A program made the position numbers and the translations under genes. The notes under the pieces were generated by a model. It was given only the letters and a program-made list of their open reading frames with translations, was not told the DNA's origin and searched no databases. Shown here one piece after another: positions 21,434-55,300 of a stretch of DNA of 64,000 bases. The stretch's first letter is position 1. Every line of letters starts with the position of its first letter. The stretch lies in assembly GCA_045837725.1 (NCBI GenBank), contig JBEWZL010000123.1, forward strand, positions 1 through 64,000, written 5' to 3'. This DNA comes from Vermamoeba vermiformis (lineage: Eukaryota).

Positions 21434-24400
21434 TTATTTGGTACGACGAGTTTTGTCTTGATTGAACTTCATCAACGAGGCCAAGAAAGTTAAAATCATA
21501 TTCGCCTTGACTTCAACAATGTCTTCCCAAACTAAGAAAATAAAGCAACCAATCTTACGCGCAATGCTAATAATGTACTTAGCATTGAGAGCTTTCTCCT
21601 CGGCATTAGATCCAGGCGTAACTAACTCGTAGTTGACTACACCAGGCTCGCAAGAGTCCAATAAATCAATTAAGAACTCTCCGGTGCTAATAGTCTCATC
21701 TTTAAAGTTGTCGATCTCTTTGGCCTTCTTGTTAGCGGCGCGGATCTGCCAGAAAATAAAATAAATAAAAGTTCAGATCCGGATTTGAAGATCCACATAC
21801 CGTTTGATTAGCCCAATTCTTAATCGTAGTTTCATCAACGTAATTGGTGTTGCCAATAGTCTTCAAAATATGCAGTAAATGATATTTGCAAGCTTGCCAC
21901 ACGAGCGCCAAGATCAGCTTGCGGTTCTTGTCGACAAAGTCTTTGCCTTCAATGCCCACGAGCACAAAGCCCAATTTCTTGCCTAGTGTCACGCACATAT
22001 TGCAGTTCTCGTTTTTCATGAACCGATTGGTTGGTCGTTGATTGACACGTGACCAATCCACAACACCCGGCGAGATCTTGTCGAACATCTGTGTTGTGAC
22101 AAAAATTAGCGCAATGATTTCGATATGACACGTGTCAAACACAAACCTGTAACAAGACGAGACCATCACTGACGTCTTCGTGCAAATTGTTGACGAATCT
22201 GTCGATGCCCAGCGAGTTGATCCACGTGCAAAAAGCTCGCTCTTCACGACTGCCTTCAACGTCTTTGATCTCAAGCGCTGCTTTGACGACTGAAGCCTCG
22301 GCCTCTTTGATCGGTTCGAGACCTGTCACCACGTCAAAGATCGTGGCCATCATCGCCAAGTTGAGACGTTCATTGCCCGCGTTGATGTCTTTGGGCGTGA
22401 CCCAAGGTCTGAACTGCGTCTTCAACAAGTTGACGAGCTGTTCTGCTCGCTTGTGCGCGTCAGCTTCGGTGAGCAGCGACAAGGAGTACTTCTCAGGCTC
22501 TAGTTTGGACATCAAACCGACGTAGGCTTCCACATTCTGGACCGAAGTTTAGGACTTGCAAACTTGACAAAAGAAGCTAAAAGAATTACGTACGGCAAGA
22601 TCACGGCCAAAGTTCTTGACACCGCGTTCGGAGCCTCTAGGTGTGATAGGCTCAGCAGAGACTTTACCGCCAGACAAGTGGTAGTTGATCCAGCGCAACA
22701 AGATCTGTTCGCCAGGTACTGTTTGAAGCTCTTCGAGTTGAGAGTTGTCGAACAGACGAATGATTTCTGGGTGCTTTTGAATGGACACCTTGGACAGCAG
22801 GGCAACTTTGATGACTTCCCACGTCAGATCCAAGAATGCCGAGGGTTTATCTTCGAGCAAATCTTCGATCTGAATGTGGAACACTTTGCAGCCAATAGCA
22901 GGTGCCGAGTTGAGACACAAATTGTAGTTCTGAACAATCTCAGCCTCTGAGAGGTCTGGCTTCGTATTCAACACTCGGTCATCGATCGTGCCTGGTTTGG
23001 CCAAGTTGATCAGCTTGCTAAAGAGAGTACGGTTAGACCAGGCCTATTAACGCGAACAACTATGCATACCATATCAACAAGCCGCTCTTTAATGCTGCGA
23101 GCATGTTCGGTGTCGCTTTGTAGATCGGCAACAAGTGCTGCAAATCTTTGTCGTCCTTCAACATGTCGTTGATGTACAAGGCCATGGCTTTCTCTTCGGC
23201 ACTGTGGAAGGTTGTAGGCATCACAATCTCTTCCTCCTCGCGAATTTTCTTCAGTTCTAATTGTTGCTGCGTTTGTGCGAGTCGCGAGGCAAGATCCGAG
23301 ATCTGACAATACTAGCTGATCAGTAATGTTTCGGCGAGATTTTATGCTGTGCTAGATATTGCAGTTAATAATATTGTTCGTATTGAATAGTATTAAGAGG
23401 TTATTTACCTATAGATTTATAATGATTCTTATACTAGTATCCAAAATCAAAAAATCTAACCTGAGTATCGAATTTCTTAGTCTTATCGTCCATTTTGCCT
23501 TTCAATTTGTCTAATTCTGCTCTCAAACTAGCATTTTCTTTCTCTAATTCTGCTATTCTAATTTGTTGCTGCTGAATGATTTTATCTTTTTCTTGCAGAT
23601 CCGCAAGTAGCTTTGTATTGGTCTTTGTTAAATCATTCATATTGGTCTGCAATAACGTGTTCGACTCGACTAATTTAGCTTTGTCTGCTTCAAATTGTTT
23701 CAATTGCTCCGTTAATTTCTGCTTGGCTTCAAGTTCCTTTTCGAGCTCGGTCATTCTGGTCTTGACCTCGCTCTCGTACAACTTCTGTTTCTCGAGCAAA
23801 TCTTGTTTTTCTTTCAATTCGCTCTCGAGTTGTGAGATCTTGCTGGCGTGTTGGGACTCTTGATCGCCCTTCGCTTGGAGACTTCGTTTGGCTTCGTCCA
23901 ACTGGCCTTCCAGCAACGTGACTCGTTCATTCGCGGAATTCTTTTCAGACTCCAGCTCTTTGCGCAACTTTTCCAAACGATCCAATTCTTCGTTCTTGTT
24001 CGCCAACTGACCTTTGAGCTCATCAGCACTGCTGTCACGTGACAAGACTTCTTTCTTAAGTGACTCAAGTTCATCGCGCAACTGCTGTTCTAATTCGGTC
24101 TTCTGGGTCAAATTCTTCTTTACGCCTTCAAGCTCTTCGTCTTTAGCAGCAAGAGTGGCCCGATAGGTCTTCTCATTCTCGTTGATCAAGTGTTCTTTAG
24201 CCTCCAACATCTCTTTGTACTGCTTCTCCAATTTTTGCTTCTCTTCTTCAGAAGACAACCGCAAAGCTTCGAGCTCGCCAGTCAGCTTTGTGTTCAAGCT
24301 AGATTGCTCTTCAATCTTGGCTTGGGCAGTAGTCAACTGATTGCTCAATTCGGCCTCACGAGCCTTCAATTGGTTCAACTCTTCTTGCAGCTGTGACATG

Positions 24401-27400
24401 CCTGACACGCCACTTCGCAACTGCGTGTTCTCTTCGGTCAAACGTTGCAATTCTTTCTGCAATTCATCGCGCTCCTTGACAGCAGACGCGAGCTGAGTGC
24501 TCAAGTCGTCATTGCGGGCCTTGTGCTCGTCAATAAGTTTCTGCAGCTCGTCAGCCTTCTTATTGGCAGCTTCAAGCTGTTCTTTCAACGAGCCGTTCTC
24601 GGTTTCGAGGGCACTCTTGGCAGTTTCCAATTCAGTGAACGCCTTTTGTCGCTCCTCACGCAATGAAATCTCGCTGTCGAGTGAGGTTTGAAGTTGTTTC
24701 AGCTTGTCACTGTTCGCGCTGTGTTCTTGCTCGAGTTCAGTGATTTTCTTCGTCCTTTGTTCGAGCTCAGCTTGGAGTTGTTGTACTTGACCTTCAAAAT
24801 CGTGCACCTTGGCTTCGAGTTGAGTGTTCTTAGCACGCTCTTGCTCGAGCTGTGTGTTCAAGGCTTGAATATCGCCTTCGAGTTGGGCCTTGGCAGCCTT
24901 CAGTTCTTCGCGCAAGGTCTCAAGTTCCTTGGCAGCTGTCTCTTTGCTCGCTGACAATTCTTCTTGCAGCACTTTGATGCGCTCGTCCTTCTCGTTAAGC
25001 TCCTTTTGCGCCTGTTCGACACGTGTTTTCTGCTCGGCCAACAAAGCATTCAACGATTTAAGTTCTTCAGTAGCACCTTGCTGCGAGGCCTTTAACTCGT
25101 CGTACTGCTTCAAGTTCTCTTTCAGTTGAGCCATATCACGTGCCATCTCGTCCATCTTCGACTTGAGGTCTTCATTCTCGTTGTTGATGTTCTCGCGGAT
25201 GTCTTGGATCTTGATCGACTTCTGCTCTTGTTTGTTGAGTTCAGCTTTAAGTGCGCGGATCTCGTCTTGCAACTCTTTGTTTTCTTCGAAGAACTTGTTC
25301 AATTTGCTTTGCAGCTTCTGTTGTCGTTGATAAGAGATGACAGCAGCCAGCAACAAATTGACATTTTTGCGCGGAGTTGTGGAACCGCTCTCGCCTTCAA
25401 TCTTAGACAAAAGTGAAGTAGCCAACACCTTCTCAGTATTCTGACTCGGTGTCTCCTTGTCCTTGACATCTGTTTGGAGCTCATCGATCAAGCGGCGAGC
25501 GTCATCGAGCACTTTGTAGTTATCTGCAGGATTAACGTCGCTCAATGATCGTTCAATCATGTCAGTCAAATTGCTGTCGTCATTGTCGTCCAGGCCAGAC
25601 TTGCTGCCGTGTGACGTGGCCTATGAAATTTCACGAATGAGATCGCGACGAGATACAACCGTAATTTAAATCCTTACCTCTCTTAATTGAGCTTCCAATT
25701 GCTTGTTCTTCTTCTTAAGGGCCTTAATAGTCTCGTTCAAGTCTTCCAAGTCGTTCAGTTGTCGCTTCAAAGTGTAAACTTCTTCAGCCAAGTTCTCTTT
25801 CTCGCTTTCAAGTGCAGTATTGGTCTCTTGTAATGAGCTATTTGTAGTCTCGAGGTGTTCGATAGTGTCTTTGGCTTGTTGCAAATACAATTTGTACTCT
25901 TCCAAGCGTTCTTTCAGTTCTTGCATGGTCTCGAGTCCGTCAACATCGGGACCTCGTCTCAGCGCATTGACGCTGGTCTGCAGGTCCTTAATTGCTGCCT
26001 CTTTTTCTTTGAGCTCGGCTAGTAACGTTTGGTTCATTTTACCAGCCTCTTCGACCTCTCCTTGAAGAATCATGTTGCGCTACAAATATAACAACGGATC
26101 AATTTTAAGGGCCACAAAATCTTAATAGATACTACGTACTGTTTGTAAGCGCTCATTTTGAACGCGAATGTCTTCAGTATTGCGGAGTTTTTCTTCAGTT
26201 TCTTCGACTTTACGTTTAATGTTTTCAATCTCATTCAAAAGCTCTTCATTTTTCAGCAATAAAGCTTTGCCAATTTCAGCAGCCAAGTTCGCATCGCGTT
26301 CTTTTTCCTCGAGCAGCTTTGTCAGCCAATAAATCTTGCGCGAGGTATCAGGGCCTGAATCCTCATCTTCTAATAAGCGACGCGCAGATGGAGATCCTAG
26401 ATACTCCAAATGATCGTGTAAATTCTGTGCGCGTCCTGATGGAGATGAAGGAGGTGTTCCAGGATGATCTCCTTCTTCCTCTTCAGGTTGTCTAATTGCA
26501 AAAATTTCAGCAATGAAAAACCGATCAGGATCGGAAACAAAAATATCTTTCGAAATGAATCTTTTAAATTATTGCATGAAATTACCTTGACTCGCCGAGT
26601 TTATAAGCTGACACTGTTTTCAGATCCAAACTATTGATGCCTGGTGGCGGGGTTTTGCTGCGTGGCCGTTTGTCACGATCGTGCTCGCTCTTTGGCGTAG
26701 TAGTGCCGTCTGAGCCATTCTCAGACCTTTCCATTTCCAAAAGCTCCTGCAATTTACTATTTAAATTCTGGATGTCGCTCTGGTCGTAGATCCGTGGAGT
26801 AACTGGTGTCGGCGGAGTGGCTTTGTATCGATTTAAATTTGGTGATGATAGGCTTCTGTGGAACGGAGAAAACGGCTTTCTATATAAACTATCTACAATA
26901 TCTTCTTCTCTTAGTTCCAAGTGGTCCTGAAGTTAAAAAATCAATTAAATTGAGCGGGATCAAAAAAAAAAACACAAAAAATCTCCATTTAATTAATAAC
27001 ATGTTCTAGATTGGTACAGTTAATGTATTGATAAACAAAAATTAATAAATTATTTGCATTTTAATTACTTGGATAAGGAGATTATTCTTGGGTTGTCGAT
27101 CTCAAGCCCAAGATCACTTCAAGAACCGATGCAATTAGGACAAATAAGAAGTGAATAATATGCCGTGTAACCCTCCGCCACGAGGTAATGTTCAAATGTC
27201 ACAAATTTAATCTCGCTATTAAATTTTATAAACCTCGCCAAATAAAGGATATATGACCCAATACATGACAGTTTAAAGCGAGAATGTAATAATGGCGTTG
27301 TAATAATACAACAATTACATCAAATAAATGCTTTTAATGAGTGTCGCAGTCCGGATCCCGCTCAAAAACACTTACCACATTTTTTAAATATTTAGTATAA

Positions 27401-27685
27401 TTTCCCATTGTCTCCCAGTGGTCTAAATACATTCCGCGGTCGGGTTCAAACAATCTTCCGACTGTTCCCGCTTTTCGGTAATTTTCTGAAGGAAAAGATC
27501 TAAGTACAAAAATATTTACGATTTTACAACAAGATCTACGCACCTAAACCAAGGGACAATATGACATATGATATCGTTTCCTGTACTGTGAAATTTGGGT
27601 GTAACTGGACGATTTTAAAATCGTAGGGATACTGAAACGGAAACTTGATCTTCACGCTGATCTTCTTCTGTTGCTGTGGTTCCAT
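21434..27685 (-). CDS. Large fimbrin/plastin-family fusion: talin-F0-like Ubl, CC1 box, long coiled coil, four CH domains
   Basis: Fimbrin CH1-4 motifs (EEKAMALYINDML, EQILLRWINYHL, SREERAFCTWINSLG, NAKYIISIARKIGCFIFLVWEDIVEV). In-frame splice DTQ|ISDL joins the coil to CH1. First exons from ATG 27685 splice in frame into DHLELRE. Confidence 0.8.
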
Positions 27686-27962: not shown

Positions 27963-29093
27963 TTACAGGTCCTTAGCATCAAATGCCAATAAAATATCAC
28001 CGATTTGACGAGCCACACGTAAATCGACCTGTGCTAAGTTTGTCAGCAGATCGAGCAAGGTGGTCGATTTCTCGTTCACTTGTCGCAACTGTCTTTCTTT
28101 CTCAGCAGAGGCAGGTAGTACGTGATACACTATCACAGCTCTCTTCGTAGAATCGTCACGTGCTAGTGAAAAAAACGAACACAGTTCTTGTTCTGCGAGC
28201 TGAAATTGCGCGTTCTCCGGTGAGAAACAACACGAGTGGATCACGACTGAACGAGGCTCGAGCGATTCAAACGTTATGCCTGCATCTTTTAGGTCCTGAT
28301 TATAATATACTATATCAATATCGTTGATAGACACGGCACTAGATCTGACGGGGAATATTTGCAAAGTCAACTTACCAAATGAACCGGTTTTATGCCGTAC
28401 GCTCCAAATATGCCCATATTGATAAATTTCGTTACCTAACGTCATATTAATATCCATTATAATACTTAACGAGATAAGGAAGCACGAGTGAGACTTACGT
28501 TTAGATCTTCAGTAAATTTCTCGTTCGCGTAAAGCCAGGTGTGATACATCATATTAACTTCGTTCCAATTCGAGCACATAAATTTCTGACACTCGCCAGG
28601 CCTCGGTTGCGTGCAGATACTAATATAGAACTCGATGCTGTTGCTGCTGTCATTTTGAAGCATATCTTTGATGGCCTCAACTAGTGCTTGTGGGACTTGC
28701 TTTATGAGTTTAGCGGGTATGACAGGCAGTTTGATTAATGTTAATAGCGTGCAGGGCGTGTAATCGTCGCCATAAACACCTGCAATATTTAAATTAAATT
28801 AGAAACTCGCAATAAAATATTACGGTTAAATACAATGAATTATTGGCCAAGTTTATGACTTTAAATAAATATTTTATCTGATAATTACCTGTTAAAGGCA
28901 CGCAAGGAAAGCCAAAAATATCGAATACAGAGATATCCATCGGATCTGGCGTTATAACATTTCCTTCACCATCAAATTTAATAGATAATTGAAACAAATT
29001 GTCTTCAAAGCTGCCCAGATTGATTTTGTTCTTTGTCCGCAGAAGAATTTTCGAGTTTTCAGATGCGCTCTTCCATTGCTCTTGATCAGCCAT
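27963..29093 (-). CDS. Hypothetical multi-exon protein
   Basis: ORFs 28794-29117, 28466-28663 and 27963-28457 separated by GT-AG introns. Confidence 0.5.
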
Positions 29094-46594: not shown

Positions 46595-48252
46595 CTAATA
46601 TACATTTGCCACAGTCACTGACGGCAGCTGAGTCGTGAGTGCTTTAAATCCTTTCTTCGTCGTCTCGACCACGCGCTGCAAATTCAACTGCTGCAGATTG
46701 ACGAGCACGCTCAGACACGCGAGACCCAAGTCAGTGACATTAGGACAGTTGATACTAAGCGACTTGATGTTCATCAGATGCGGTGCTAGTAACTTCAAGG
46801 CGTTGTTGTCGAAGTAGTTGTCGGTGATGGAGAGCCGCTGCAGATTGGTCAATTTGCTGAACTGACGCAAGTGCAGCTTGAACTCGTTGCGCGAACTGGT
46901 CTTGTAGTAAAAGTTGGACAGCGACAGCTCTTCTAAATGGACCAATGACGTGGCAATCAGCTTGATGTAATCGGTCAGCACGACCTCTTTGTTCAAGTAA
47001 TTGCCTGTCAATTTGACACTCTTCAGCGCTGACATGTCACGTGTCAACTGTTTGACACCGGCCTCGCTGATGTGCTCGCACAGACTCAGATCTAAATTGA
47101 CCAAATTTGTACATTTGCTCACGTGATGCATGGTCGCGTCGGTCGTGAAGGCTGGTAGTTTGAGAGTTGCCAAATTAGGAAATGTTGATATTAATTCAAG
47201 TTTCTTGGGCTTCATCGCGTTGCAAGAGCTGATGTCGAGTGCTGTCAGACACGTCAAATGCGTGACACTGTTCAGATCTTCGGCGTCGAGTGGCAGACTC
47301 AGTTCATGAATGCCGCTGACACGTGTCAAATAATTGACGGAAGTGCTGTCAATTTGCCCGCATTCGAGCAAGTGCAGACCTGTCAAATTTTGACACTTTG
47401 ACAGCGCAATCAAAGCCTGGCCCGTGACACCGTTGCAGTAGTTCAAATTGACTTGTAAAGTGACACTTGGTGGCACTTGGCGCACGAACCACATGAAAGA
47501 CTCGTCGGAGAGCTCATCGCGATTACTAAATATGGAAAAGTCGAGTACTATTTCTGGTGCTGCTTGGAGCAGTGACCTGGACCATGATTTGGAGACTAAT
47601 CCGAGTCTAATAATGTGTTAGTACGCATATTAATTACGAATAACAACGTACGTGAGAATTGTTCGGAGATCCAATCCGACAAAATGAAGGATCTTTTGTC
47701 GCACTTCAACTGGCATTGAAGAGAAGTGAAATTCGGGTTTAAACGACTATTAATATTTTAGAATATGGACCGACAATTGAGTGCTCGTACCTCTTTGATA
47801 AATTCAGCGAGCTGAGCAAATCTGGCGTTCAACAATTCAACTTCGAGAGATTGAACCTATATCGCGATATTAACACGTGCATATTATTATACGTCGATTT
47901 AGCATGCTTACATGCACAACTTTTTTCAAATAGTCGAGTTCTTGTACGACTTTCTTGTGATCAGAAAAAGAGACGTAATTTGACGGATCAAACCTATAAA
48001 AGTGGGCCATATAAATAAAAAATTGCTAGAATTTATCGCTATGATTATTGCATAATATTGCGGTAGAATTCCATACTTAAAATTTTCTTGGATCGGCTGA
48101 ACAACAGGCTGCAGAGGCTGCGGTGCTTGTCCCAAGGATAATTCGTAATTAGAAAATACTTGCAATAAGTCTCGTTGCAAATGCAGCTTTATTTTCAACT
48201 CCTCATTCTCGCGCTGCAGTCGTTCAATTTCACGCCTATTTTCCGAATTCAT
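46595..48252 (-). CDS. F-box/LRR (FBXL-like) protein
   Basis: F-box FSSMPVEVRQKILHFV...LVSKSW; cysteine-containing LRRs (NLVNLDLSLCEHISEAGV, CPNVTDLGL). Confidence 0.8.
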
Positions 48253-48568: not shown

Positions 48569-49960
48569 ATGAAAAGATCATTCGAAGAAATATTTATTGA
48601 CCCAAATGGCGACGAGGATCTGCACCAAAACAAAAAACAAAAAATAGATTTGACTGTGTTCCGTCACTTGCCTGCAGAAATACTCGTGCATCACCTAGTA
48701 CCCTGCATAGCACGCGATTGGTTGTATGTTTCACGAGAATGGAGCACAGTTGCGCGTATTAGTCTCACATCCGATCCGCGTGTCAAATTCACAACCGGCT
48801 CCTTGATGGCAGTGGTGGCTAATAACGATATTGTAGGCGTGAAAACACATTTTAAGTCGCTGCAAATGTCTGCAACAGATATGTGCGAGGCATTTATCTT
48901 TGCATGCAACCTCGGCTAGCACGAGATCGTGGATTTGCTCTTGACTCAGCCACAAGTAGATCCGCACTACGGCAGCGATGTAGCTATTAAAAACGCAGTA
49001 ATTAAGGGCGACTATCAACTTCTGAAGCGATTGGTCAAAGGCAAACACGTGGATCAGAACAGCTTTCCGGCAGTGATGCTCGCGATCAAGAACGGACATT
49101 ACTACATCCTCAAATTACTGCTCAAAGACAAAAAAATTGATCCCAGCACCAACAATAACGTAGCCATCATCAAGGCAGTCGCTTATAGCCAGTACAACAT
49201 GGTCAAACTGTTGTTGAAAGATCCACGAGTGGATCCGAGCGCACAAAACAACATAGCCATATGCAAAGCTGCAAGAAGATCGTATCAAATTGCTAAATTA
49301 TTAGTGAAAGACCCACGCGTCGATCCATCGGCCAAGTCAAATGGGGCACTAAGAGCAGCGATTGATAATGGCCAGTACAAAATTGTCAAACTTTTGATGA
49401 AAGATCCGCGAGTGGATCCGAGCGACAATTCGCATCCTGAGTGCCCCCCGCCCATCGTTAGTGCAGTATTGAATGACAACTGGAGAATATTGAAGCTATT
49501 GCTGAAAGATCCGAGAAGTGATCCAACAGTCGCGAACAACCGGCTGATCCGTACTGCAGTGCGAATCAACGAGATGGACTTGGTGGAATTGCTCTTGCAA
49601 CACCCCAGCACTGACCCATTGGGCCATGACGGCATTGCCAGCGAGTACCAAGAACACAACAAGTACGCCACGAGCATTGACATTGCCGCGGCCAATGACA
49701 ACTTGCCAATGTTGCAGCTGTTGTTGGCTGATCCACGTGTCAATTTCCTTTTTTGGACAGGACATGCAATACAGCGGCTAGTCCAGCTCGGCTGTTTCGA
49801 AACCGCTCATGCACTGCTCAAAGACCCTCGTGTAGTTGTCTCCAAGGAGTTGTTTGAAAAGATCTCACTCGCTCTTCGACAGCAGGAAAAACGAGTGGAT
49901 CTGGCGCCGGAATTAGGTGCCTTTTTGGATCTGTTGCATTCGAAGCGAGATTCCCAATAA
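48569..49960 (+). CDS. Intronless F-box plus ankyrin-repeat (DPRVDPS-type) protein interrupted by an in-frame TAG
   Basis: FRHLPAEIL...VSREW; repeated KLLLKDPRVDPS; TAG at 48917-48919 within ACNLG*HEIVDLLL. Confidence 0.75.
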
Positions 49961-52300: not shown

Positions 52301-55300
52301 TTAAGATTTTTCACGTGGCTCAATTTCTAGTGAAGTATCGAACAGTTCTTTCTCGCCTAAGGGTTGGTATTGACGGAGATAATTTGAAATGGCCGTGTCT
52401 CGATCGATGTTGTACCCTTGTTGCTGGTACTGTTGCACCTCTAATATAAACTCAGCTGACAATCGCTGCTTGAAGAAATTGATCAGCTCAATGCCATCTT
52501 CAACGACCGTGTGGGGATTGCCCTCGTCGATAAATGTCAGATCTGACAGGTACGTGCCCAAATAAGGAATGATGGGCGGATTTGAATTGTGCACGTGTTC
52601 GCGCAGCTTGGCAAAGTTCTTGTCGGGGTGTGTGACTTCGCGCAGTTGTTCGAGTTGCTTCTTCAGTTTTACGAGCTAAAGTGTGACCGTTAGAACAACG
52701 AACTGAGTGATTGTTAAGCAACGGACACTTACCGCCCAGGTCTTGTTTAATCGATTGACTGCCGAGATACCAAAGCCACTGAGTACTTCCACGAGACCAT
52801 TGAAGTTGTTGAGGTCATACAACGCCTTGGCCACACGAATGAATCGGTTGACGACTTCAGCACGCAAGTTCAAGTCCTTGCACTGACAAATCTCTGTGGC
52901 CACCCACATTGTGATCTTGTTGGAGTTGGCAATCATGAGACGAATGTTAGGGGCGTTTTGGTTCTTCACCTCCACTGTGCCCTTGTTCCACGCTTGGTTG
53001 AGGAATTCTTTGGGCTGCAGTGCACTGTACAAATCGAACTCGATCAAACAGAGCTGTCGCGCCAATATCTCGGGCTCGATATTCAAAATCAGATTCACTT
53101 CGCCAATCACAGTCGTGAGGCCCTTAGACATTCCTCGATCACGTGGCGTTAGTTTTCCTTCTGCTTCGACACGTGCCGCTTCTTTGGCCTTGTAATCCTC
53201 CTCGCTGGTGCGGGTAATTTTGATCAACTGGGCTGCCAGCTTTTTCATGCCTTCATCCGTGATATCTTTTTCCAAGAACTCCAACACTCGTTCTAACAGC
53301 TCTGTGTCGTGATAAAAGTCTCTAAAATGATTTTCAATCCAACTACGCAGTACGTTGATGACTCGTAATTGCACGGGCAGCTTGATTGATTTTTGCCATG
53401 TTTTCAGTGCTTCAGGATCATTTTGTTTTTCTTTGGGTGGCCCAATATTGAATCGCGCAATAATCCTATTCAACAAATCTTTCGATGTCATAAAGGCTCT
53501 GTACGTCAGCAGGAAAATCTTTTGATATCGCACATCAGGGTGCAACTCGTAAGTTAATCTGTACACTAGCTGGTCCACTGTGGCAGCTCTGTTCACTTAG
53601 TCAGTATCGGGAAAATTACTGCGCAAGATTGAACGTACCTAATTTGAGGTCCTTTAGCAGTTTTATCCTTTGAAAACTTCAAATCTTTTTGATCCTTAGC
53701 TGTGATCATCAACAACACGTTGGCTGAAATAAGAGATTGATTGGATTCATCTGCTAAGAAATCTGTTGAGGCTCCTTTGTCAATCAATAGTTTGGCTATT
53801 GTTTTGCGCTTGTGTCGCAAGGCAATGGCGAGTGGAGTCTAATGCCAATACGGTTAGCGGGACTACATTACGATAAGATATATATAAAGTGGCACGACGT
53901 ACCAAACCCTCGTTGTCCTTGGCGTCAATCTCAGCTCCAAAACTCAACAGCATGTTAGCAGATGTCGGGTCTCCAATGGTGACCAAATGGTGAAGAGCTA
54001 GTCATTTATGTCAGAACAGGTTGCTAATTCAAATTCATTAATTGACACTACTTACGAGTGCTTCCATTCGCGTCACGTGCTTTGACGTCACAACCGAGCA
54101 ACAGCAGCAGGTTAATGCAATGTCGACATGATTTCAAACCAGCATCGTGCAGTGGAGTCATTCCATTCTTGTCTACGGCACTCACTTGTGCACCCTAACC
54201 TCATGTTAATAAGGACATTACAACGTTATGTCTATGGTACATACTGCTTGAACCACAGCGTTCATGCACTCGTGTTTGTTGTATTTGGCCGCGTAATGCA
54301 GTGCTCCTTTGCCGTCAATTGAATCAACAACTGTTGCAAGAGCACCTGTAACGCGTGGTTAGAGTCAACTTTCACGATAATTTCTTCGAGTACGTACCTG
54401 ATTCTATTAGCTTCTCGATCATTTTGTTGTCGCCAGTGCCCATGAGTGCTGCCAACAATGGCGTTACACCTTCAATATTGGCTGCATTCACGTCTGCTTT
54501 CTTGTCAAGTAGCAATACCACGCTGTCGAAGTGATTGCTGTGCGCGGCTTTCCATAGAGGAGTGCTCTTTTTTTCTGAATATAATTCCATATTAGCAAGT
54601 TGTGCATCGATAATAGTAAGGCTAGAATGGCTAGAAAAAGTTGCAATATTTTTTCAGTTTTATTAGGCGTTGGATCTGCCGTTCGAGTAACTTCAATTTT
54701 ATGATCGTTGCGAGCATGATATTACGAATAATTCGTAATAACTTACCACCAGGTGCCTCTACCGGAACATTTTGATTTAAAAATAAAGCGATCACATCTG
54801 TTCGTCCGTTTGCGGCGGCCCTAATTCAATAATAATCGTTATCACAAAATCTTGATTTAAATAGTATAAAACAATATAAAATAATTATAAAATGAGCGCA
54901 TGAATAGTAACAAAGGTGAATTGAGTTTGCTCACGTAAGTGTGAATGGAATCTTTTAGGAATTATAATGCACGTTATATTATAAGCTCGAAAATATTACT
55001 TACCAGTGAATAGGCAAATTTTCTTTGTGATCCGCCGCATTAATATTTGCTCCGAATTTTACCAGCAGATTAACGCACTCGATCCAGCCTTTGCCGCTTA
55101 CTAAGTGCAACGGCGTTACGCCATTACTATCTGCTACATTAATGTCCACTTTTAAGTCTTGCAATAATCGCACAAAGACCTCTCGGTGGTCAGATTTGAT
55201 CGCCAACAGCAGCATGGAGTTTCCCTCTTCATCTCTTATTGGGTCTTTCATCTGCTCGATAAAATCTGGCTTTTTTAATATCTTCTCGATTTTTAATAGC

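Follow-up and report, generated by a model that had tools for sequence, protein, structure and literature searches.

The dynein-dynactin adaptors of the CC1-box type (BICDR1/BICDL1, TRAK1/2 and HAP1, together with BICD2 and Spindly) share an AAxxG box in a first coiled coil (CC1) some 200 residues long; CC1 ends in a break, past which a short helix carries the L-Phi-x-E-Phi motif, while their C-terminal cargo ends diverge. In BICD2, A43 occupies heptad position d and G47 position a, and together they form the pocket for the dynein light intermediate chain (LIC) (Lee et al., PMC7655957). In BICDR1, the CC1 box is A116/A117/G120, the CC2 box is Q150/H153 and the Spindly motif is L347/L348/E350, of which E350 contacts p25 (Chaaban and Carter, preprint). 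The corresponding Qxx[H/Y] site of TRAK1 is placed at residues 163-166. Fimbrins and plastins, for their part, carry four tandem calponin homology (CH) domains, and an EF-hand headpiece is said to be present in all of them (PMC10533516, 2023). Here we describe a gene of Vermamoeba vermiformis in which an adaptor-like coil precedes a fimbrin core. It lies in contig JBEWZL010000123.1 of assembly GCA_045837725.1, of which positions 1 to 64,000 were analysed (hereafter the window, 64,000 nucleotides).

A related combination is known from Dictyostelium. When the HAP1_N regions of TRAK1 and Milton were compared with its proteins by BLAST, fimbrin-3 (fimC) was reported to match best (2e-06 and 2e-04, respectively), with fimbrin-4 (fimD) a common match (0.001 and 0.079); both have four CH domains, and the likeness was read as a general ability for coiled-coil interaction (Lumsden et al. 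2016, PMC5064798). Judged by this published description, fimC and fimD share with the Vermamoeba gene a HAP1_N-like coil and four CH domains, so that the architecture, which the initial annotation of the window did not recognise as described, had in fact been noticed before. In contrast to our reading, the passages of that paper on fimC and fimD do not take the likeness for a dynein-adaptor module; the paper predates the CC1-box/Spindly-motif framework. We found no literature reading fimbrin-linked coils as a dynein adaptor, and this reading appears to be new.

One transcript from the coil to the fimbrin core

The gene is on the minus strand and runs from the ATG at 27685-27683 to the stop codon at 21436-21434. 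Its 11 exons, deduced from the open reading frames (ORFs) and the sequence, encode a product of 1717 amino acids (aa), and all 10 introns are of the GT..AG type. Start, stop and motif coordinates of the single spliced gene that the initial annotation had placed at 27685-21434 were all reproduced. Nine of the 10 introns were confirmed by RNA contigs, reads or the spliced proteins of relatives, the exception being intron 2.

The RNA comparison covered four of 18 listed runs, namely the contig sets X1 and X2 (labelled 'RNA?', mostly 95-99% alike) and the raw RNA-seq sets X16 and X18, whose reads come from a more diverged relative (mostly 90-99% alike). Introns 4-10 were matched exactly by CT..AC joints in the contigs, and the raw reads also show introns 6, 9 and 10, as well as an alternative form with a donor at 23409. 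Intron 6, the junction between the coil and the fimbrin part (23461/23302), was found in X1, X2, X16 (2 reads) and X18 (3 reads). One 495-nucleotide (nt) contig, record 2 of X1, reaches from the end of exon 6 through the whole of exon 7 into exon 8.

A protein search with exon 8 gave one cluster (1 of 354 candidates), whose members include P0009 and P0012, the 1569-aa proteins of a 5020- and a 5019-nt transcript contig that are named plastin-1 in their source. They match our model from the equivalent of M149 to the final residue with 91.8% identity (1439 of 1568 aligned positions), and they confirm intron 3. Because these ORFs and the RNA joints cross the junction, a single transcript, open in one frame from M149 to the stop codon, carries the HAP1_N-like coil together with the long coil and the four CH domains. 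The expected single transcript over 27685-21434 is thus borne out for this part of the gene, and the part upstream of M149 is discussed with the head below. It is very improbable that the model artificially joins separate genes, be it coil and fimbrin part or head and remainder. Such an artefact could appeal to the donor at 23409, which ends the frame before the fimbrin part, but for coil and fimbrin it is refuted by P0009, P0012 and record 2 of X1.

The donor at 23409 was joined to the exon 7 acceptor in three reads of X16 and one of X18, a frequency similar to that of the main donor at 23461 (two and three reads, respectively). The extra 52 nt (23409-23460, minus strand) read VRFFDFGY-stop in the window. 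This form would give a coil-only protein, a target of nonsense-mediated decay or an alternative first exon of a fimbrin-only form. Two other kinds of joint were set aside. A joint from 26981 to 21753, which goes back 5229 positions, and loose poly-A ends were taken as artefacts, as the T/A runs at 26962-26981 and 21753-21770 catch poly-A tails; and a joint 23018/23073 (TA..AT, 2 letters between) was taken as misaligned diverged reads.

The Pfam CH family was found in each of exons 8-11, and P0009 contains four CH stretches with 188.2 bits. The 548-aa protein P0005 matched over its full length the core of Arabidopsis FIM1 (1pxy, 2.4e-112), human plastin-3 (7r94, residues 121-624, 2.2e-100) and Schizosaccharomyces pombe Fim1 (1rt8, 1.8e-99), so that the core is about equally far from the plant, animal and yeast structures. 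The alignment with 7r94 begins at residue 121, past the EF head, and no EF-hand family was found in any exon (Pfam, E ≤ 1) or in P0009 (E ≤ 0.01). By these alignments the fimbrin core is complete, with four tandem CH domains aligned end to end with 1pxy, 1rt8 and 7r94 and two predicted actin-binding domains, as had been read from the sequence at first together with the missing EF-hand head. Unlike in those fimbrins, a head, a linker and a coiled coil, together about 1190 residues long, stand in place of the headpiece, and it is this non-fimbrin part that an annotation in the style of 'plastin-1' hides.

The CC1 box, the break and the Spindly-type motifs

The CC1-box segment is LLEEKERDANLAAEIGKALLLKNEEL (L257-L282; 26316-26239, minus strand), and the AAxxG core named in the initial annotation lies within it (Table 1). 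The a/d core positions, assigned by eye, are I251, L254, L258, K261, A265, A268(d), G272(a), L275, N279, L282, I286, I289 and V293. A268 at d and G272 at a give the same register as A43 and G47 of BICD2. HAP1_N (PF04849), whose Pfam gathering cut-off is 33.9 bits, matched exon 4 alone with 45.7 bits (6.7e-12, model positions 61-117), and it matched likewise the exon of L001, a metagenome locus of a more distant relative that is about 78% identical in nucleotides (one locus was confirmed out of 596 pattern matches). The N-terminal 482 aa of P0009 scored 29.0 bits (E 8e-07, the next family having E 0.0029) and the whole of P0009 21.1 bits. HAP1_N was the top Pfam family for all three queries, and its alignment with P0009 is collinear over model positions 62-268; formal membership is borderline. 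In a sequence search against the PDB, five of the six matches at E ≤ 1 were TRAK2 or BICDR1, aligned on the CC1 box, and the best was TRAK2. On these sequence comparisons the CC1 box is genuine and is the most specific adaptor signal of the predicted protein.

When exon 4 was searched against 1.84 billion representatives, four proteins were found at E ≤ 0.001: the unspliced ORF of the locus itself, the TRAK-like fragment P0004, the fragment P0003 and the unrelated bacterial P/S/A-rich repeat protein P0002, the last of which was dismissed as low complexity. P0003 is a 65-aa fragment on a 1572-nt contig; it is 44% identical and keeps LAAEIG-ALL (as LAAEIGQALL). A longer search for homologous proteins with exon 4 scored none of 1043 candidates. 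AAxxG is invariant in the window, P0009, P0013, L001 and P0003, all of these relatives being close except the more distant fragment P0003.

An AlphaFold2 (AF2) model of residues 1-482 of P0009 had a mean predicted local distance difference test score (pLDDT) of 67, with most of CC1 at 75-89. In window numbering, the model shows a disordered start (M149-219), short helices at 222-229 and 232-240, a helix of 110 residues with the CC1 box (247-356), a kink at 357-363 (RGPDVDG), a helix at 364-452, a low-confidence linker, short helices at 464-475, 480-503 and 511-525, and a coil from 533. The predicted CC1 thus has about 206 residues (247-452), which agrees with the coil of about 200-250 residues found in adaptors between the LIC site and the pointed-end motif. 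Adaptors whose CC1 is broken and whose Spindly motif follows a flexible linker have been described with this layout (preprint 10.64898/2026.04.25.720804).

The two short helices just upstream of CC1 (aa 222-240; 26374-26430; NLHDHLEY, SPSARRLLE) are almost invariant in three relatives. In TRAK1, autoinhibitory helices shield the CC1 box (2026 preprint 10.64898/2026.04.25.720804). That the helices at 222-240 might have an autoinhibitory role by analogy is only a thought.

Past the coil break, TSLLSKIE had been proposed as the Spindly motif at about 250 aa after the box. It is indeed present there, and compared with residues 345-353 of BICDR1 (TSLLSEIEQ) seven of nine positions are alike. However, K522 stands at the place of the p25-contacting glutamate, and the lysine is also found in P0009 (TSLLAKIE) and L001 (TSLLSKIE). 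A sequence that fits the motif instead is LIDEL, 26 aa upstream of TSLLSKIE. Its distance from A268 is 225 residues, near the 231 from A116 to L347 in BICDR1. It is invariant in three of three relatives, and it is the only strict Spindly match between residues 413 and 1408.

Identity to P0009 is 96.1% in CC1, 94.3% in the fimbrin core, 89.4% in the second coil (CC2) and 87.5% in the break region. CC1 and the break region have ratios of nonsynonymous to synonymous substitution rates (dN/dS) against L001 of 0.042 and 0.023, respectively, compared with 0.065-0.106 in the following coil (0.106 for residues 700-860). Since dN/dS of CC1 and the break lies below that of the following coil, and identity is highest in CC1, the N-terminal module is more constrained than a spacer would need, and CC1 is therefore probably not a mere spacer.

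We suggest that the protein is a dimeric dynein-dynactin adaptor of the CC1-box type with a fimbrin core as its cargo end, which would link dynein-dynactin to F-actin. Our rough probability for this is 0.45, slightly less than one half, as several observations weigh against it. HAP1_N stays under its cut-off on both the whole protein and the N-terminal 482 aa, and the E-values of the TRAK2 and BICDR1 matches are weak (0.043-0.11). The language-model neighbours of residues 60-420 are generic coiled-coil clusters, with BICD2 at rank 17 and Spindly at rank 24, at 0.91. The heavy-chain site Qxx[H/Y] (the CC2 box, or heavy-chain binding site HBS1) is missing from CC1: the position +34 from A268 is N302, and none of the three Qxx[HY] matches of the protein falls in CC1, where Q309-N-E-R312 is the only, non-canonical candidate. 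TSLLSKIE, the sequence closest to the motif of BICDR1, has its lysine where the conserved glutamate contacts p25. The Spindly pattern is short, and its 6 strict and 23 loose matches in 1717 aa are by themselves no more than expected by chance. Another motor could be the partner, as HAP1_N proteins bind kinesin-1 too. The relatives found are all close (84-92% aa identity), apart from the fragment P0003, in which the CC1 box is kept. The missing Qxx[H/Y] does not exclude adaptor function, because known adaptors deviate as well: NIN uses Q378/R381, and FIP3 is given without QxxH/Y (2026 preprint 10.64898/2026.04.25.720804).

Some of these observations would also suit a protein acting purely on the actin side, that is a long-armed dimeric crosslinker or bundle spacer that binds no motor and whose likeness to CC1 boxes is an old coiled-coil resemblance. 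The whole-protein HAP1_N score (21.1 against 33.9 bits), the lack of a canonical HBS1, the generic language-model neighbours and the many generic coiled-coil families matching the same region all point this way. The HAP1_N-like matches reported from Dictyostelium, moreover, also include myosin II, kinesins and SMC, which shows how coils inflate such searches (PMC5064798). We nevertheless consider this alternative somewhat unlikely. It is the atypical AAxxG core, not generic heptads, that lies at the centre of the match, and the small residues at d and a, which are disfavoured in a plain dimerisation coil, are yet invariant, P0003 included. Constraint is stronger on CC1 and the break region than on the spacer coil, and the conserved short helices of the break would be needless in a plain spacer.

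The adaptor could also serve kinesin-1, both motors or another coiled-coil partner in the manner of TRAK and HAP1, and link plus-end-directed transport to F-actin. TRAK, Milton and HAP1 bind kinesin-1 as well as dynein (PMC10011603, PMC8319186); the top family here is HAP1_N, which takes in these founding members, and the best PDB match is TRAK2. A missing QxxH/Y and a glutamate-to-lysine change would be expected if contacts with dynein-dynactin were not under selection. However, the features that are conserved (AAxxG, the length of CC1, the break and LIDEL) are those of dynein-dynactin adaptors, and Pfam detected neither a Milt/TRAK domain nor another kinesin-binding signature in P0009. We consider such a role quite unlikely.

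The N-terminal head and two isoforms

In one X2 contig the exon 3 acceptor at 26926 is spliced to another donor, at position 27069 (joint 26925/27068, cut +1), and 71 nt lie beyond the joint. This alternative first exon contains an in-frame stop 11 codons before the junction, which is found in L001 too, and no ATG in the window. Because of the stop and the lack of an ATG upstream, transcripts with this exon are predicted to begin translation at M149. P0009 begins at the equivalent of M149, as they predict, and the sampled transcripts of the coil-fimbrin part start at M149, without the head. Directly 5′ of the exon, a conserved block in intron 2 (27140-27260) fits an internal promoter making the head-less form, a role suggested by its position and conservation.

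An 87-aa protein, P0015, found on a 3890-nt contig in the search with exon 1, joins exon 1 to exon 2 and runs on into intron 2. It confirms intron 1 and the expression of exons 1 and 2, with intron 2 retained. The junction of exon 2 to exon 3 (27376/26926) occurs in no RNA record (X1, X2, X16, X18 or the contigs of relatives), and since P0015 moreover ends in the retained intron, an 87-aa head-only product is conceivable, which would separate the head from the rest of the gene. However, the read-through tails past exon 2 show no conservation, with 14 aa in the window and 41 aa in L001, and purifying selection acts on exon 3 upstream of M149 in a frame continuous with exon 2, from which we infer a long, head-bearing isoform. 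Against L001, exon 1 has a dN/dS of 0.017, exon 2 of 0 and exon 3 before M149 of 0.046 (dS 0.3-1.3); all five nucleotide differences in exon 2 are synonymous, and the sole indel before M149 is of 6 nt and in frame. The long isoform is thus well supported by evolution.

Intron 1 (27486-27543, 58 nt) is 78% identical to L001, near the 81% of exon 1 and far above other intron stretches (37-57%).

The initial annotation had assigned the head a ubiquitin fold resembling talin F0. Single exons gave no ubiquitin-clan Pfam family (E ≤ 1), P0015 gave no match to FERM_f0, RA or ubiquitin (E ≤ 10), and a PDB sequence search with P0015 (phmmer) gave nothing relevant; the P0015 query is without the putative last strand encoded in exon 3. 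Of the profiles proposed for checking, HAP1_N was matched above its cut-off by exon 4 alone, and FERM_f0 gave no match in these searches. An AF2 model of the P0015 head, made from the single sequence with no alignment, had a pLDDT of 43.8 and was unusable. The language-model neighbours of the head were Kindlin_2_N (0.89), PI3K_p85B (0.88), FERM_f0 (0.86) and RA (0.86), all of them beta-grasp folds but all under 0.9, and so a lead only. A head of the beta-grasp type is plausible. These results give no support beyond that lead to the talin-F0 and Rap1 reading and leave the ubiquitin fold a putative one; the sampled transcripts do not include the head.

The features of the gene are listed in Table 1. 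The upstream neighbour, also on the minus strand (27963-28508 and on to about 29093), ends at 27963, 278 nt before the ATG of the fimbrin-coil gene. It is kept in L001 (76.6% over 1136 nt), and no Pfam family was found in it. Other ORFs of the window, at 52676-53596 (minus), 48920-49960 (plus) and 46595-47617 (minus), gave the Pfam families RasGEF_N with RasGEF, ankyrin repeats and leucine-rich repeats. Six further long ORFs of the window gave no Pfam family at E ≤ 0.001.

Table 1. Positions of exons, candidate motifs and 5′ elements of the fimbrin-coil gene in the window.
Feature	Positions	Strand	Content	Evidence and remarks
Exon 1	27544-27685	minus	aa 1-47 and one base; start codon, first half of head	Spliced to exon 2 in P0015; L001 nt identity 81%
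Exon 2	27376-27485	minus	aa 48-84; second half of head	P0015; L001 nt identity 95%
Promoter-like block in intron 2	27140-27260	minus	Directly 5′ of alternative first exon	L001 identity 72%, compared with 37% in the intron stretch just upstream
Alternative non-coding first exon	27069-27139	minus	Donor 27069 spliced to exon 3 acceptor; 5′ end not mapped	X2 contig; donor kept in L001
Exon 3	26586-26926	minus	aa 85-197; putative last head strand (DHLELRE), disordered serine/proline-rich linker, M149 as start of short isoform	
Exon 4	26140-26491	minus	aa 198-315; short conserved helices (222-240), start of CC1 with CC1 box	Joint 26079/26140 in X1 and X2
CC1 box core A268-A269-E-I-G272 (AAxxG)	26269-26283	minus		Only AAxxG in 1717 aa
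Q309-N-E-R312	26149-26160	minus	Candidate heavy-chain site; only Q-x-x-basic/aromatic in CC1	Non-canonical; +41 from A268, one heptad late
Exon 5	25678-26079	minus	aa 316-449; remainder of CC1, kink 357-363 (RGPDVDG)	Joints seen on both sides
Exon 6	23461-25620	minus	aa 450-1169; break with three short helices, followed by the long coil CC2	2160-nt open exon; joints 25620/25678 and 23302/23461
L493-I-D-E-L497 (LIDEL)	25477-25491	minus	Canonical Spindly-type motif; helix 480-503 after coil break	Fits L-Phi-x-E-Phi and updated J-x-x-E-Phi
TSLLSKIE, T517-E524 (motif of the initial annotation)	25396-25419	minus	Spindly-like; 251 residues after A268	K522 replaces E
Exon 7	23070-23302	minus	aa 1170-1246; end of coil and first half of CH1	Joints 23302/23461 and 23017/23070; matches fimbrin structures via P0005
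Exon 8	22594-23017	minus	End of CH1 and start of CH2	Pfam CH 9.6e-10; P0005 95% identical
Exon 9	22147-22536	minus	End of CH2, linker between actin-binding domains, start of CH3	Pfam CH 2.5e-08; RNA joints
Exon 10	21801-22088	minus	CH3	Pfam CH 1.7e-10; RNA joints
Exon 11	21434-21745	minus	CH4 and stop codon 21434-21436	Pfam CH 9.4e-15; joint 21745/21801 in 4 of 4 RNA sets

A proposed link between dynein and F-actin

From the observed gene structure, the transcript from M149 to the stop codon, the domain content and the conservation, we infer a mechanism that extends to dimerisation, to every binding step and to the role of the head. The protein would be a long, probably parallel-dimeric coiled coil, whose CC1 (247-452, kinked at 357-363) would lie along the dynactin filament. 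Past the flexible break, the LIDEL helix would dock on p25 at the pointed end, perhaps with help from the TSLLSKIE helix next to it. A further coil of about 650 residues would then separate this motor end from two four-CH fimbrin cores gripping F-actin. The outcome may be that dynein is anchored on cortical actin and pulls microtubules, or that dynein carries or organises actin bundles. Two promoters would give two forms: the short one from M149, which is seen in RNA, and a long one with an additional head of 85-90 aa, likely of the beta-grasp type, and a disordered linker. This head may serve in regulation or targeting.

The proposed protein resembles BICDR1/BICDL1, TRAK1/2 and HAP1 in its AAxxG with A and G at d and a, in the context EKERD-x-x-LAAEIGKALL-x-x-N, which is near BICDR1 and TRAK2, and in the order and BICDR1-like spacing of CC1, break and short candidate L-Phi-x-E-Phi helix before a divergent C-terminal end. 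Unlike these adaptors, it has no canonical Qxx[H/Y], no HAP1_N score above cut-off over the whole protein and no Milt/TRAK domain; its cargo end is a fimbrin core lying beyond the extra coil, its beta-grasp-like head is optional, and its adaptor function is a predicted one.

Cortical dynein anchors and actin-microtubule linkers are known in other forms, such as NuMA, yeast Num1, the spectraplakins (ACF7/Shot), nesprin-2 and the plant KCH kinesins. NuMA carries adaptor-type motifs, and nesprin-2 and the spectraplakins bind actin via CH domains. None of these is known to have a CC1 box linked directly to a double actin-binding core of the fimbrin type.

If the protein binds no motor, it would still be an unusual fimbrin in which a dimerising rod replaces the EF-hand head. 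If the adaptor reading is true, an activating adaptor with a classical actin bundler as its cargo domain would be a bridge, made of one protein, from the minus-end motor to F-actin, and a candidate for holding dynein at the actin cortex in organisms without anchors of the NuMA or Num1 type. We further speculate, as an unlikely extension, that it is a bona fide adaptor with F-actin as cargo and serves as the cortical dynein receptor of this lineage, perhaps of amoebae generally via fimC and fimD, and that a GTPase-binding head switched by promoter choice lets Ras or Rap place microtubule pulling. The adaptor reading would also give its uncharacterised relatives a testable function, and fimC and fimD, if orthologous, would bring that function into the genetically tractable Dictyostelium.

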